Shown here piece by piece: positions 1,273 to 6,803 of a stretch of 64,000 nt of DNA. Every line of letters starts with the position of its first letter. Within the stretch, counting starts at the first letter, position 1. The translations under genes and the position numbers were made by a program. Origin of the DNA: Planctomycetota bacterium (GTDB lineage Bacteria; Planctomycetota; UBA8108; UBA1146); NCBI GenBank assembly GCA_965661685.1, contig CBFIET010000175.1, positions 20,160 to 84,159 of the forward strand, read 5' to 3'. The notes below the pieces were generated by a model. That model was not told where the DNA came from, searched no databases, and saw nothing but the letters and a program-made list of their open reading frames with translations.

Positions 1273-2262
1273 ATGCTGCGCAACATCGCCATGCTTGCAT
1301 CACTTCTGGTCGTGATACCCGGATGCTTGACCCCTGACGAACGAAGTACCGCAACCCGGGACACCTGGGCCATCGCCATCCATGGTGGAGCCGGTGCCAT
1401 CTCCGAGGACGCACCCGCTGAGATCCGCAACGCCTATCTCGAATCCCTTCGATCCGCTCTCACCATCGGCTCCGGAATCTTGCAGAGTGGTGGCTCCGGC
1501 CTCGATGCCGTGGAGCAGGTAATTCGCTACCTCGAGGACGATCCTCTCTTCAATGCCGGGCACGGAGCAGTCTTCAATTCCAAGGGGAATCATGAGCTGG
1601 ACGCATCCATCATGGATGGATCCGATCTTTCCTGCGGTGCTGTTGCGGGAGTTCGAACGGTGCGACACCCCATCACCCTGGCCAGAAAGGTGATGACAGA
1701 CACTCGCCACGTGCTCTTTGCAGGAGAGGGAGCCGAGACCTTTGCGAGTCAGAGCGGTGTCGAGCTGGTCGAGAACTCCTTCTTCTCCACCGATCGCCGT
1801 CGGCAGCAGTGGATCAAGAAGACCCAGCAGAAGAAGGGGACGGTCGGAGTGGCAGTGCTCGATCGCCACGGCCACCTGGCGGCGGGTACCTCTACCGGCG
1901 GCATGACTGACAAGCGCTGGGGACGAGTTGGCGACTCCCCCATCGTCGGAGCCGGTACCTACGCGGATGATCGTGCCTGCGCAGTCTCCTGCACAGGCAC
2001 CGGCGAGGAGTACATTCGACACGCCGTCGCTCATTCCGTCGCCGCTCGCATGATGCTGGCGGGCCAGGATCTACAATCTGCCTGCGATGCGTTGATTCAT
2101 CAGGTACTGCAACCCGATGACGGTGGACTCATCGCCGTCGACCGGTCGGGAAACATCGCGTTTTCCTACAGCACAGGAGGAATGTATCGTGCCGCCGCCA
2201 ATTCGAGCGGACGCTTCGAGGTTGGCATCCATGATGAAATGATGGGAGATCCTGGCTCCTAG
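1273..2262 (+). CDS. iaaA: Plant-type (Ntn-hydrolase) isoaspartyl peptidase / L-asparaginase, predicted lipoprotein
   Basis: 329 aa. Signal peptide with lipobox (LLVVIPGC). Ntn autoprocessing and nucleophile motif KGTVGVAVLD, also GAGTYADD and AVSCTGTGEEYIR, all typical of IaaA / asparaginase 2. Confidence 0.85.
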   Translation: MLRNIAMLASLLVVIPGCLTPDERSTATRDTWAIAIHGGAGAISEDAPAEIRNAYLESLRSALTIGSGILQSGGSGLDAVEQVIRYLEDDPLFNAGHGAVFNSKGNHELDASIMDGSDLSCGAVAGVRTVRHPITLARKVMTDTRHVLFAGEGAETFASQSGVELVENSFFSTDRRRQQWIKKTQQKKGTVGVAVLDRHGHLAAGTSTGGMTDKRWGRVGDSPIVGAGTYADDRACAVSCTGTGEEYIRHAVAHSVAARMMLAGQDLQSACDALIHQVLQPDDGGLIAVDRSGNIAFSYSTGGMYRAAANSSGRFEVGIHDEMMGDPGS

Positions 2263-2362
2263 TTTTCCGCAGCGGTTCTGGAATGGTCGTCAGGATTCCA
2301 TCGATCTCCACTTGCGATGAAGTGAACTCTAAAATCGGCTGTCGTCTCCTTGGTTGAGAGCC
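2259..2362 (-). pseudogene. Relic 3-prime end of a cyanophycinase (S51) gene; only the C-terminal ~33 codons remain
   Basis: Minus-strand frame reads ...HRLSTKETTADFRVHFIASGDRWNPDDHSRTAAEN*. This parallels the C-terminus of the intact S51 gene at 3758..4588 (KETTADFRIHLIGSGQSWKTT...). It contains the 32-nt repeat at 2322..2353. There is no upstream coding continuation. Confidence 0.45.
2322..2353. repeat. 32-nt direct repeat, copy A (gtgaactctaaaatcggctgtcgtctccttgg)
   Basis: Matches 3821..3852 at 31 of 32 positions in the same orientation. Flanks are diverged. Confidence 0.8.
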
Positions 2363-2590
2363 GGTGCCCTCATGTGAGAGATGATCATTGCTGCAGGTGC
2401 TTTGGCATTGACGGCTTGGAGTCCCTGCGCATGCTTCTATAGTAGAGTGTTGCCGTCGGAGTCGCAGGGCCGATTCGCTGCCACCGCCCGACCAAGAATT
2501 GCACGATCAAGAATTGTACAGACTCGAAACGTCAACTCCGTCAGATATGGAGGCCGCAGCATGCGACGCCTTCAAGTAGGGATACATCCC

Positions 2591-3688
2591 ATGAAGCATC
2601 TCAGCTTGGGCTTCTTGATACTTCTCTTCGCAACCTCCTGCGCCGGCCCGCCCGTCGCAGAGCTCTCACACCCTGAGTCCAGCCAACTCTTCGACTTGCT
2701 CGACACCGGTCGGGATGGCTCCCTCTCCCCCTTCGAGGCGCTCGACGCCCTGCTCGTGATCTCGGAGGAGGGCCCCTTGACCCGCGAGACTCTCGGAGCT
2801 TTTTTGAGCGAGTACGCTGAAGAGGAGTTCGCCGACCGCAGGGACTTCTTCGAGATGGGGGACTCGGACGGCGACGGGAGGCTGCTGCTGGACGATCTCC
2901 CCAGTGGATCTACCTCCATGATGTCGAGCCTGGACACCGACGGTGACGGTGCCCTCAGTTGGAGCGAGTTCAGGCTGGCCAATATCGAGACCTCCGAACT
3001 GATGGCGAGAGGTGAGGGAGCGGAGCTCTATGCCGAGCTCGTCGAGGAGATCGGGGAGCCAGTGCGGCTGGAAGGAGCTCCCCTTGACCTCGTCGAGGAG
3101 CTGCGGGAGTTGGATCTCGACGGAAACGGGATCGTCACTCAAGAAGAGACCGTGCAGTTGATCCGTGAGGAGATCGCTGGGGCGACCTTCGAGGTCACAG
3201 GCGAGCTCGCTTTCATGCAAGGAGTGATCGGTGCAACTACTCCTTCGAGTGTGCTTGAGCTCGCTTTCATGAACCCTGAGGTTCGGACCATTGTCCTCAC
3301 CAATATGCCAGGTTCGATGGACGACGTGGCCAACATGCGGGCCGGACGATACATCCGGCAGCTTGGCCTGAACACGCACGTACCGGCGGATAGCGAAGTG
3401 GCCTCTGGCGCAACCGACCTGTTTCTAGCCGGTAGGCATCGCTCCTGTGAGCCGGGCGCACGCTTCGGCATCCACTCTTGGGGTGGAGGTCCTGTGGTAG
3501 CCACGGACCTGCCAAGAGATCATGAAGATCACCTCCTCTACCTGGACTACTACGAGGAGATGGGCATCCCTGCGGAGTTCTACTGGCGAACTCTCTCGGC
3601 GGCCCCAGCTGAGGACATCCACTGGATGACGGAGGAGGAGCTCGAGCGCTTTGGTTTCTTCACGGACGAGAGGCCTGACCTGAAGTAA
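2591..3688 (+). CDS. Secreted lipoprotein with three to four EF-hand Ca-binding loops and a C-terminal domain with possible ClpP/crotonase-like fold
   Basis: Start chosen at MKHLSLGFLILLFATSC (lipobox) rather than the track ORF start 2381. EF-hand loops: DTGRDGSLSPFE, DSDGDGRLLLDD, DTDGDGALSWSE, DLDGNGIVTQEE. The C-terminal segment LTNMPGSMDDVANMRAGRYIRQLG...ASGATDLFLAG resembles the ClpP/SppA fold (low confidence). Confidence 0.7.
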   Translation: MKHLSLGFLILLFATSCAGPPVAELSHPESSQLFDLLDTGRDGSLSPFEALDALLVISEEGPLTRETLGAFLSEYAEEEFADRRDFFEMGDSDGDGRLLLDDLPSGSTSMMSSLDTDGDGALSWSEFRLANIETSELMARGEGAELYAELVEEIGEPVRLEGAPLDLVEELRELDLDGNGIVTQEETVQLIREEIAGATFEVTGELAFMQGVIGATTPSSVLELAFMNPEVRTIVLTNMPGSMDDVANMRAGRYIRQLGLNTHVPADSEVASGATDLFLAGRHRSCEPGARFGIHSWGGGPVVATDLPRDHEDHLLYLDYYEEMGIPAEFYWRTLSAAPAEDIHWMTEEELERFGFFTDERPDLK

Positions 3689-3757
3689 GGCTCCGAGCGG
3701 GGTCGGAGGTTTGCCTCAGAGTTCACATACGAGGCTTGTTGGAGCTTGATCCCATCA

Positions 3758-4588
3758 TTAGTGGTCTCGAACAGAGGACGCAAGCGGAGTCGTTTTCCAG
3801 GACTGGCCGCTACCGATCAGGTGAATTCTAAAATCGGCTGTCGTCTCCTTGGCGGATGATTCCGTCTTTGACTTGCGACCATCGATCACCACCACCGGCC
3901 CCCGGCCGATCACTTGCCAGGAACCATCGGGATCGACGATGACGGCGGTCTGCTCATCGATGCCGACTCCGATCTGATCTGGATGATCGGCGACGGCGGT
4001 GAAGAGGCGCGCCCAGCGCCTTCTGGCGAGGAAATGCTGATCGACGATGACACCGGGCCACAGCCCCAGTCCCTCGACCAGTTCCGTGGTCGATTTGAGC
4101 AACGCCTCCAGTTCTGCCTTGCCGGTGATCATGTGGCGAGACATCACCGCAGCACCGGCGCTGGTTCCGGCAACGATCGTCCCGGCGGCGTGGCTTTTTC
4201 TCATCACCTCGATGAGGCCTCGCTGACGGAACGCCTCCATCAATCGGCTCTGGTCACCACCGACCAGCCAGATCAGGTCTGCCTTCTCCACGGCGATTCG
4301 TGCCGCCTCTGCGTCCTCGGGGATGATCGATACCTGCTCTGCTCCCGATTCGATCCATGCATCTCTGGTCGAAGAGCCGGCATTTTCTCGGGCTGAAGCC
4401 CACGGAACGATGAGGATTCTGGCATCACTTCCCCCCGCCATCTGCAGGGCACGGGGACGAAGGTCTGGCGGAATCGACCCCCCTCCTGCGACGATGAGGA
4501 CTCCTGCGGTGGTAGTTGAAGGAACTGGCTCTTCATGGGGATGCAGGGAAAGAGTAGTGACAAGAATCGACATCATGATCATCTTCAT
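3758..4588 (-). CDS. cphB: Cyanophycinase (peptidase S51, CphB/CphE-like), secreted
   Basis: Start at MKMIMMSILVTTLSL with a GGAGG RBS 5 nt upstream. GTSAGAAVMS serine motif, VIVDQHFLARRRW, IGVGIDEQTAVIVDP...VVVIDGR and C-terminal FRIHLIGSG are all colinear with Synechocystis CphB. An N-terminal signal peptide suggests an extracellular (CphE-type) enzyme. Confidence 0.8.
   Translation of the reverse strand: MKMIMMSILVTTLSLHPHEEPVPSTTTAGVLIVAGGGSIPPDLRPRALQMAGGSDARILIVPWASARENAGSSTRDAWIESGAEQVSIIPEDAEAARIAVEKADLIWLVGGDQSRLMEAFRQRGLIEVMRKSHAAGTIVAGTSAGAAVMSRHMITGKAELEALLKSTTELVEGLGLWPGVIVDQHFLARRRWARLFTAVADHPDQIGVGIDEQTAVIVDPDGSWQVIGRGPVVVIDGRKSKTESSAKETTADFRIHLIGSGQSWKTTPLASSVRDH
3821..3852. 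repeat. 32-nt direct repeat, copy B (gtgaattctaaaatcggctgtcgtctccttgg)
   Basis: Lies inside the 3-prime coding end of the cyanophycinase gene, encoding ...KETTADFRIH... on the minus strand. Confidence 0.8.
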
Positions 4589-4678
4589 CGGGACCTCCAA
4601 GGCGGTATTCTCACCCGTTGACTCACTCCTGTCAGCAGGAGACCTTCATTCAGACCGATGAAGATCAACGGAGGCTCC

Positions 4679-5476: not shown

Positions 5477-5516
5477 ATAACGCCCCCTCCGGATCGTTCC
5501 GGGGGGGGCGTTATTG
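5477..5516. terminator. Bidirectional rho-independent terminator between convergent genes
   Basis: AATAACGCCCCCTCCGGA-tcgt-TCCGGGGGGGGCGTTATT. This is an 18-bp GC-rich stem with one mismatch and a 4-nt loop, with an A-run on the left and a T-rich run on the right. Confidence 0.8.
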
Positions 5517-5534: not shown

Positions 5535-6608
5535 TTAGAGCGGTTGTGGCTCGGGACGAGGCTCGGGACGGGGATTATCTCCTCCGCGTCCTCCACGGCC
5601 ATCGGGACGAGGACGGGGAGGTCTGTCACCACCCTGACCACCACCCTGGCCACCACCGGGCTGAGGTCCAACCTCTTCTCCACCACCACGGCCTCCGCGA
5701 CCACCACCACGTCTACGACGCGGCTGATCGCCACCCTCGCCACCACCGGGCTGGGGTCCGATCTCTTCTCCACCACCACGGCCTCCACGTCTGCGGCGTG
5801 GCTGGTCGCCATCCTGGCCACCACGACCTCGTCGACCCTGGCTCATCTCTTCACGATCGATGATTCCATCTCCGTTGCGATCGAGTGGGCCAAGACGGCG
5901 GCGAAGCCCTTCCGGCAACCCTTCCATCTCTTCACGATCGATGACTCCGTCACCGTTCGGATCGAGTCGTCCGAGTCCGCCACGACCACGCTCAGGAGGT
6001 CCATTCCCATCTCCTGGAGGAGGTCCTCCTTCCGGTGCCGGGCGACGGCGATTCAGCCCCTCGAGCTCTTCCGGAGAGATCACTCCATCGCCATTGCGAT
6101 CGAGTCGACGGCGCATTCCTTCCGGAATGCCCTCGATCTCTTCCTTGTCGATGATTCCATCGCCATTGCGATCAAATCGATCGATCAATCCGCCTCCGCG
6201 ACGACGGTCGGGAGCAGGATTATCTCCTCCCTCTCCACCGGGTTGCGGCCGATTACCACCGCGTCCGAGAACGCCATCGAGTTCTTCTCCAGAGATGATT
6301 CCATCTCCGTTGGTATCAGCACCACCCAGTCGACGGCGCATACTCTCGGGGAGTCCTTCCAGTTCTTCCTTGTCGAGAACCCCATCACCGTTGCGATCGA
6401 GGCGATCGATCAGACTGGAACCACCACGACCACGGCGCCGTGGCGCGGGAGGTGTCGGAGCAGGAGCAGGATCATCGCCTGGAGTAACATCCGGGGGCGT
6501 AGGATGGTCCTCACCGGGAGTAGGGCGAGGTGAGGGAGTGGGTTGAGGATCCTGTGCCAGAACGATGGCTGGCATCAAGATCACCAGGAACAGGGAGAGA
6601 AGACGCAT
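5535..6608 (-). CDS. Secreted repetitive EF-hand-like calcium-binding protein rich in Pro and Gly
   Basis: Start MRLLSLFLVILMPAIVLAQD, with a GGAGG RBS. At least six tandem units of DRNGDG(V/I)(I/L)DxEE(L/M/I)EG(L/I)PExhRRRL are separated by Gly/Pro/Arg-rich linkers. The long plus-strand ORFs across this region are antisense artefacts of the repeats. Confidence 0.75.
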   Translation of the reverse strand: MRLLSLFLVILMPAIVLAQDPQPTPSPRPTPGEDHPTPPDVTPGDDPAPAPTPPAPRRRGRGGSSLIDRLDRNGDGVLDKEELEGLPESMRRRLGGADTNGDGIISGEELDGVLGRGGNRPQPGGEGGDNPAPDRRRGGGLIDRFDRNGDGIIDKEEIEGIPEGMRRRLDRNGDGVISPEELEGLNRRRPAPEGGPPPGDGNGPPERGRGGLGRLDPNGDGVIDREEMEGLPEGLRRRLGPLDRNGDGIIDREEMSQGRRGRGGQDGDQPRRRRGGRGGGEEIGPQPGGGEGGDQPRRRRGGGRGGRGGGEEVGPQPGGGQGGGQGGDRPPRPRPDGRGGRGGDNPRPEPRPEPQPL

Positions 6609-6803
6609 TGTGACCTCCACAAATCGGGGAGTTGATTCAAATGAAACGACTGCAAAAGTCTCCCGATTTCTGATCGCTAATCAGAGCGGATGAGAGATTC
6701 GCCGCCAATGAAGTACTATACACGATCAACCCCGCTCCCCCCTAGTAGTTGCATGCAACCCTGAAAACCCGTGGATTGCAGCAGGATGGACGATTACCGG
6801 CAG

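Follow-up and report, generated by a model that had tools for sequence, protein, structure and literature searches.

In a 64,000-nucleotide (nt) stretch of DNA from a Planctomycetota bacterium (assembly GCA_965661685.1, contig CBFIET010000175.1, positions 20,160 to 84,159; here called the window), a gene encoding an EF-hand lipoprotein is inserted into the 3' end of cphB, a cyanophycinase gene convergent with the isoaspartyl peptidase gene iaaA, and the former end of cphB persists as a 95-nt relic abutting iaaA. The insert is bracketed by two nearly identical copies of a 32-nt sequence, the core, one in the relic and one in the intact cphB. We consider it probable that a cassette carrying the EF-hand gene entered the end of cphB and left the relic behind, that it then spread by homologous recombination, and that the core is a scar of these events within a relic of chimeric origin. 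The copy in the window is designated W, and L-numbers denote the related loci used for comparison. The argument refers to the following features.

1273-2262, plus strand: iaaA-type isoaspartyl peptidase gene, Asparaginase_2 family (PF01112, E=1.9e-104, 349.6 bits), product with a lipoprotein-like signal.
2259-2353, minus strand: 95-nt relic of the 3' end of cphB, a pseudogene fragment recognized by translation and by comparison with uninterrupted alleles; its parts are the tail (2259-2294; 11 codons and a stop), the post-core (2295-2321), and core copy A (2322-2353).
2322-2353: core copy A, in the relic; its plus-strand 3' edge (2352-2354) is the insertion junction.
2354-3705, plus strand: inserted EF-hand module, consisting of 5' noncoding DNA (2354-2590) and the gene (2591-3688) and ending in the gene's own terminator hairpin.
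3706-3793: 88 nt travelling with the cassette, present in cassette-bearing loci only, at 94-100% identity.
3794-3820 and 3821-3852, minus strand: post-core and core copy B, within the 3' end of the intact cphB.
3758-4600, minus strand: intact cyanophycinase gene (CphE/CphB-like; TIGR02069, PF03575), product of 280 amino acids (aa) with a signal peptide.
2233-4152: recently imported recombination tract, spanning the relic, the EF-hand gene, and ~400 nt at the 3' end of cphB.

The two core copies, GTGAACTCTAAAATCGGCTGTCGTCTCCTTGG at 2322-2353 (copy A) and GTGAATTCTAAAATCGGCTGTCGTCTCCTTGG at 3821-3852 (copy B), are identical at 31 of 32 positions, as the original prediction, made from the sequence alone, had stated. 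A scan of the window at up to three mismatches returned these two matches only (0 expected from 100 shuffles), and ungapped extension of the pair yields 46 nt at 87% identity (2308-2353 and 3807-3852; spacing, 1,499 nt). Copy B is read in the frame ...SSAKETTADFRIHLIGSGQSWKTTPLASSVRDH, followed by the stop codon, which is the end of the 280-aa Peptidase_S51/TIGR02069 cyanophycinase; frame translation and family match thus support the proposed location of copy B in the C-terminus of the intact cphB. Around copy A, the minus-strand frame reads GHRLSTKETTADFRVHFIASGDRWNPDDHSRTAAEN between two stops, with in-frame stops immediately upstream and the start codon absent. This frame was said to terminate on the iaaA stop codon, and indeed the relic TAG (minus strand, 2261-2259) and the iaaA TAG (2260-2262) overlap within the palindrome CTAG.

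In register, copies A and B are 97% identical in the core, 50% identical over 2300-2321 (22 nt), and 41% identical over 2259-2299 (41 nt); on the other side of the core, identity over 2354-2420 is 27%, the random level. Among the relatives, the intact copy and the relic agree at 19 of 27 positions over 2295-2321. The flanks had been described as diverged at about 50%, which holds for 2300-2321 but not elsewhere: 2354-2420 is unrelated, and over 2259-2299 (41%) the tail of the intact gene consists of inserted, nonhomologous DNA. Judged from these alignments, real homology between the copies is confined to about 59 nt, comprising the core and the 27-nt post-core. Direct repeats of about 59 nt, including the near-identical 32-nt core, bracket the insert.

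Comparison with uninterrupted alleles identifies the relic. These end in PGDQSRTAAGN (L003; fuller end, ...KETTADFRVHLIGSGERWKPGDQSRTAAGN) or PGDHSGTAAGN (L039; fuller end, ...RWKPGDHSGTAAGN), in each case directly before the stop codon. The relic tail, NPDDHSRTAAEN followed by a stop, differs from the L003 and L039 tails at 3-4 of 36 nt, and because of this match we identify the relic as the old cphB end. The relic core is identical to that of L003 at all 32 positions, and the relic stop overlaps the iaaA stop in the same way as in L003, L004, L005, L006, L008, and L040. The relic is present in each of the 10 cassette loci whose sequence reaches the site. It is nonfunctional coding sequence, considering its upstream in-frame stops, the lack of a start codon, and a frameshifting 1-nt deletion in the core of the L002 group. 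The end of the working gene, KTTPLASSVRDH followed by a stop, is not homologous to the relic tail. It is encoded in part by the 88 nt travelling with the cassette, of which 3758-3793 (minus strand) supply a new 11-codon tail and stop, TTPLASSVRDH. Homology between old and new tail was considered, since both comprise 11 codons plus stop after TGGAAx, but was rejected: only 12 of 36 nt match (hand count, L001), so that the equal length is taken as coincidence.

A one-genome-per-species scan for relatives gave eight Planctomycetota loci, a set extended by protein look-ups and by scanning metagenomes. In seven of these loci (L003-L008 and L040), cphB and iaaA are immediate neighbors in convergent orientation; their stops overlap in six of the seven, and in L007 the genes are 12 nt apart. 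The EF-hand gene lies between the pair, together with both core copies, in W, L001, L002, L018-L020, L035, L037, and L038, and the truncated contigs L024, L032, and L036 each show one side of an occupied site; altogether, about a dozen cphB-iaaA loci carry this gene. The insert is missing from L008, the closest relative with an empty site, which is 95-97% identical to W in the flanks at the nt level; the flanks of the empty L003 and the occupied L038 are 98.2-98.5% identical. By this comparison, the cassette is a presence/absence polymorphism. Derivation of L003 by simple deletion from an L038-like allele was rejected, since the two differ by 10-20% in the post-core, in the tail, and over ~130 nt at the end of iaaA and are 98-100% identical elsewhere. 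Because iaaA is found in synteny beside cphB in all relatives, it is the ancestral convergent partner of that gene. The claim that the EF-hand gene had been inserted into an ancestral convergent iaaA-cphB pair is upheld by the synteny of the seven empty loci and by the relic at all covered cassette sites; the accompanying claim of a duplicated cphB 3' end stands insofar as the relic is the ancestral 3' end, but not as a simple duplication followed by decay, given that the relic post-core resembles other alleles. One empty-site locus, L004 (QNYK01000050.1), is titled as a 'Bacillota bacterium' metagenome-assembled genome. Its gene order (M28, EF-hand repeat protein, GDSL, cphB, iaaA) is that of the Planctomycetota loci, and its proteins are 66-92% identical to those of the window; the Bacillota label is probably a binning or labelling error.

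The inserted module has relatives elsewhere. At 79-90% nt identity, it recurs in at least five further contexts that have neither cphB nor iaaA nearby, across which the EF-hand protein is 73-90% identical at the aa level; these contexts comprise ZnuA/ABC-3 transport, DUF2959 plus sulfatase, FG-GAP, sulfatase, and a position between ABC-3 and Peptidase_M24. The nt homology of the module is limited by window positions 2352, 2426, or 2570 on one side and by 3701-3705 on the other. In L022 and L023 it starts exactly at 2352 (GGTTGAGAGC...), preceded by unrelated sequence, which identifies the plus-strand 3' edge of relic core A as the insertion junction, with a 2-nt ambiguity. At its 3' end, the module is cut within the terminator hairpin of its own gene, a hairpin that is whole in L021 and L022.

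Identity profiles of W against L008, L001, L037, L035, and L038 (80-nt windows) reveal how the cassette has moved. W is 95-97% identical to L008 over 1353-2072 and 93-96% identical to it in 4153-4392. Across 2233-4152, however, W is 96-100% identical to L037 and 95-100% to L035, with 99-100% over most of the tract, and outside this tract the latter two loci are 52-90% identical to W. Likewise, L001 and L002 show 100% identity between mid-iaaA and the 3' end of cphB but only 61-76% over the remainder of that gene, and the 10-20% divergence of L038 from L003 is restricted to the stretch between the relic post-core and a point about 130 nt inside iaaA. The breakpoints of cassette transfer are variable and lie in cphB and iaaA. 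Such mosaic tracts of high identity within very different flanks indicate that the cassette spreads between diverged lineages by homologous recombination, and the copy in the window is, from its tract, a very recent arrival. Within the last ~190 nt of iaaA, the segment 2073-2232 is 74-89% identical to L008, L001, L037, L035, and L038, its flanks having partners at 95-100%, and may be a recombination patch from a third source. The locus resembles flexible genomic islets in its presence or absence within one lineage (L003 versus L038), its mosaic tracts, its variable breakpoints, and its single-gene cargo. Unlike in these islets, the insertion is located inside a coding region, where it has left behind a duplicated or relic 3' end and given the protein a new tail, and the flanks of donor and recipient differ by 20-40% in nt.

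We infer the following order of events. The ancestral locus would have been a cyanophycin-scavenging pair, namely, a cphB/cphE-like cyanophycinase gene and iaaA in convergent orientation with overlapping stops. About 1.44 kb of DNA would then have entered the last 11 codons of cphB by illegitimate recombination, the inserted piece consisting of the EF-hand plus ClpP-fold lipoprotein module, presumably taken from a different context with a cut in its own terminator, and the 88 nt. The working cphB would since have read through into the insert and gained its new 11-residue tail, and the old 3' end (core, post-core, and old tail) would have been left as a dead 95-nt fragment abutting iaaA. Subsequently, the cassette and its arms would have moved between diverged Planctomycetota lineages via homologous recombination in cphB and iaaA. 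The core would be the sole part of the relic still sharing ancestry with the intact copy, stemming from the original duplication or from an overlap at insertion, and would be bounded by the insertion junction and by a recombination breakpoint. The relic post-core and tail would derive from another cphB allele that had once been functional, and a crossover at the core edge during an early transfer would have attached them.

The chimeric descent of the relic is suggested by the distribution of its differences from the intact copy, which number 0 of 32 in the core and 8 of 27 in the post-core (Fisher p=0.001). This step is common to all cassettes and is therefore old. The post-core has diverged in a codon-aware manner, through conservative replacements (L>F, G>A, E>D, and K>N) and synonymous changes, and simple duplication followed by neutral decay was rejected because the differences are both nonuniform and of this kind. 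With 4/27 differences from L040 and 5/27 from L039, both of them natural functional alleles, the relic post-core is nearer to these than to the intact copy. Between the natural alleles L003 and L039, differences amount to 6/32 in the core, 3/27 in the post-core, and 3/36 in the tail; as the core is the most variable part among natural alleles, an independent allele would not be expected to share a perfect core. From these comparisons, the relic is probably an allelic mosaic, with its core from the ancestor of the intact copy and its post-core and tail from another cphB allele. Read instead as one contiguous native allele, it would correspond to an uninterrupted cphB reading ...KETTADFRVHFIASGDRWNPDD... 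to the stop codon.

Several points weigh against this reconstruction. No uninterrupted allele with the exact relic post-core was found, and the other allele is deduced from the likeness of the post-core to those of L039 and L040. For the 88 nt at 3706-3793, blastn-short matches were confined to cassette loci. The primary insertion event is beyond reconstruction, and the relics form a small, nonindependent sample (~5 lineages) in which weak constraint on the core is statistically possible. Moreover, L003 and its sibling L041 (99.2% identical) are the same through cphB until 10 nt before the core, where L003 carries a ~55-nt KETTADF patch around the core with 11 differences from L041. This implies that short-patch exchange around the core happened more than once, which leaves room for a one-off conversion between relic and intact copy.

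Such a conversion is the alternative that fares best, although we regard it as unlikely. Conversion between relic and intact cphB would have homogenized the cores, with a tract bounded on one side by the insertion junction; the sharp step from 32/32 identity to 8/27 differences and the patch in L003 relative to L041 are both consistent with it. It is, however, not an ongoing process, as private differences between the copies persist: a C>T in the intact copy of W (3827), a T>C in the relic of L035, and the deletion in the L002 group. Hence, the recent gene conversion put forward by the original prediction could hold only as an old, one-off event. RecA-mediated recombination needs a stretch of identity, and a core as diverged as the post-core would presumably have offered no identical stretch at which to initiate. 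In addition, the patch in the intact copy extends 10 nt upstream and 9-12 nt downstream of the core into sequence that differs from the relic, which excludes the relic as its donor.

A second alternative, which we consider improbable, treats the core as the crossover site of a small nonautonomous cassette: a recombinase encoded elsewhere would insert the EF-hand module at gene 3' ends and supply cphB with a replacement end. Direct repeats with sharp core edges do bracket the insert, and elsewhere the same gene is bracketed by repeats of the 3' half of a serine transfer RNA (tRNA-Ser) gene in L022 (55 nt, 98%; 2007-2061/4115-4169), L026 (89 nt, 92%; 1409-1497/3326-3414), and L021 (51 nt, 80%; 338-388/4172-4222), and in L013 by a 40-nt repeat (2788-2827/5193-5232). 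These repeat-bracketed copies resemble tiny integrase-less islets. A full tRNA-Ser(UGA) gene directly follows the EF-hand gene in L022, and a truncated tRNA-Ser fragment follows it in L016; the L026 metagenome contig ends (~3419-3480) in an Illumina adapter (GATCGGAAGAGCACACGTCTGAACTCCAGTCAC...), an assembly artefact that truncates its second tRNA-Ser copy. A further point in favor of this alternative is that cphB of L041 has a second, different insertion nearly at this position. There, unrelated AT-rich DNA (3283-3420) joins cphB ~24 nt before the stop, the protein ends in ...RVWKTGN, and the contig ends 113 nt later; this is an independent insertion, possibly of an insertion sequence (IS) element.

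Nevertheless, no integrase is encoded in the cassette or within ~5 kb, the neighbors being leuS, iaaA, cphB, GDSL, M28 peptidase, folA, and thyA genes. The ends of the module in cphB (2352 and 3705 of the window) differ from the repeat-bounded ends in the tRNA contexts and lie internal to those islets, and the core sequence is absent from all module contexts outside cphB. The cassette-type post-core, assigned to the element by an attachment-site (att) model, is already present at the empty site L003, and the observed transfers have the long, variable homologous arms of homologous recombination. The locus is thus comparable to islands targeting tRNA genes or gene 3' ends in that repeats of the target 3' end bracket the insert, the target remains intact through a substitute end, and the same cargo gene stands beside tRNA-Ser with half-tRNA repeats in other genomes. 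In contrast to integrative islands with attL and attR, it has no integrase, no att sequence common to its contexts, module ends that do not coincide with the repeats, and transfers by homology. We see only a slight chance that the EF-hand/ClpP-fold gene resides on a minimal integrase-less cassette that repeatedly entered gene 3' ends (cphB, tRNA-Ser, and another site), with the core as crossover point and either a trans-acting recombinase or RecA-mediated insertion of a circle at work. If this were true, a direct repeat of the 3' end of the target would flank such a cassette at every site.

Purifying selection on the core as an RNA- or protein-binding element had been suggested because the copies are nearly perfectly identical and the adjacent sequence is diverged. 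Such an element, needed downstream of both iaaA and the EF-hand gene, is hardly credible in view of the following results. An Rfam scan of 2100-4000 gave no family at E≤1, and folding of 101-nt windows on both strands of both copies gave z-scores of +0.30, -0.42, -0.88, and -0.06, hence no significant structure. No sigma-70-like site was found at the core, and a single terminator-like site at 3851-3866 is within chance expectation. Beyond the two cphB-derived positions, the 32-mer has no further copies in the window, the 41 fetched loci, or viral contigs, so that it is not a dispersed repeat. The core is also no better conserved than its neighbors: variable sites among 10 relics number 2/32 in the core, 1/27 in the post-core, 5/36 in the tail, and 9/74 in the adjacent module, the core changes being the 1-nt deletion (L002 and L018-L020) and the T>C (L035). 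Empty-site loci (L004-L008, L039, and L040) have very different sequence at the core position and yet retain the gene pair; in L039-L041, the differences amount to 6-14 in 32 nt. A structured RNA or dispersed regulatory repeat was rejected on these grounds, and we conclude that the 32-nt core is probably a recombination scar and not a functional element.

The EF-hand protein has a lipoprotein-type signal and a calmodulin-like N-terminal EF-hand domain with Pfam EF-hand matches; its start is placed at 2591 here and at 2561 in databases. No Pfam or NCBIfam domain match was obtained for its C-terminal half (residues ~200-365). In a high-confidence AlphaFold2 model (predicted local distance difference test score [pLDDT], 89), the C-terminal domain matches ClpP (Foldseek E~1e-5), with target-normalized template modeling scores (TM-scores) of 0.55-0.60 against ClpP/NfeD, and Ser272 (ASG) and His295 are invariant in 38 homologs. 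The predicted fold and these two residues resemble ClpP and NfeD(1510-N) serine peptidases; unlike in the latter, the domain has no Pfam/NCBIfam peptidase match and is fused behind the calmodulin-like EF-hand domain and lipoprotein signal. As modeled, the protein may represent a putative, uncharacterized family of Ca2+-linked extracytoplasmic serine peptidases. The 5' region of the gene contains a 15-nt tandem duplication at 2486-2515 (GCCCGACCAAGAATT/GCACGATCAAGAATT), present in W, L035, L037, and L038 but not in L001, L002, L018-L020, or L024. A second, unrelated EF-hand-type protein is encoded at 5535-6620 (minus strand); it is Gly/Arg/Pro-rich with repeated DRNGDGxIDxEE loops. Between its gene and the GDSL gene lies a strong GC-rich inverted repeat at 5477-5516 (AATAACGCCCCC...GGGGGGCGTTATT), resembling a bidirectional terminator.

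The cyanophycinase scores 181.4 bits against TIGR02069 (curated equivalog cutoff, 126.6) and E=1e-25 against PF03575. The PDB cyanophycinase 3en0 aligns with E=2.1e-33 (phmmer) and has an identical nucleophile motif, AGTSAGAAVM; its alignment stops at residue 250, just short of the core. The iaaA product reaches 278.6 bits with the NCBIfam beta-aspartyl-peptidase model, for which the equivalog cutoff is 567, and is assigned by these scores at the Asparaginase_2 family level only. Clusters of cyanophycinase and iaaA genes were found in 30 of 32 genomes with both genes and without cphA1, and such clusters have been described as cyanophycin-scavenging loci (Sharon et al. 2023, Sci Rep, PMC10206079). 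As in these clusters, the cyanophycinase gene adjoins iaaA here, and the export signals of both products fit scavenging. The locus differs from them in that some lineages have the pair split by an unrelated gene, with an exchanged C-terminal tail on the cyanophycinase. Cyanophycinase C-termini vary widely among homologs, and the last 30 residues are the least conserved, coverage by the family model and by the structure-based 3en0 alignment ending ahead of the core. This accounts for the tolerance of the enzyme to replacement of its last 11 residues.

Accessory genes entering between convergent core genes, relic fragments, and spread through homology of the flanks are all well known. Our findings represent ordinary genome evolution and reveal no new mechanism or class of element. 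For annotation, they carry the warning that the 95-nt fragment is a pseudogene remnant, neither a small open reading frame nor a regulatory repeat. What the locus provides is a clean, datable example of an accessory gene entering a conserved two-gene catabolic unit and rewriting the C-terminus of one of its enzymes without killing that enzyme, on a cassette that was then passed by homologous recombination between quite diverged uncultured marine Planctomycetota.

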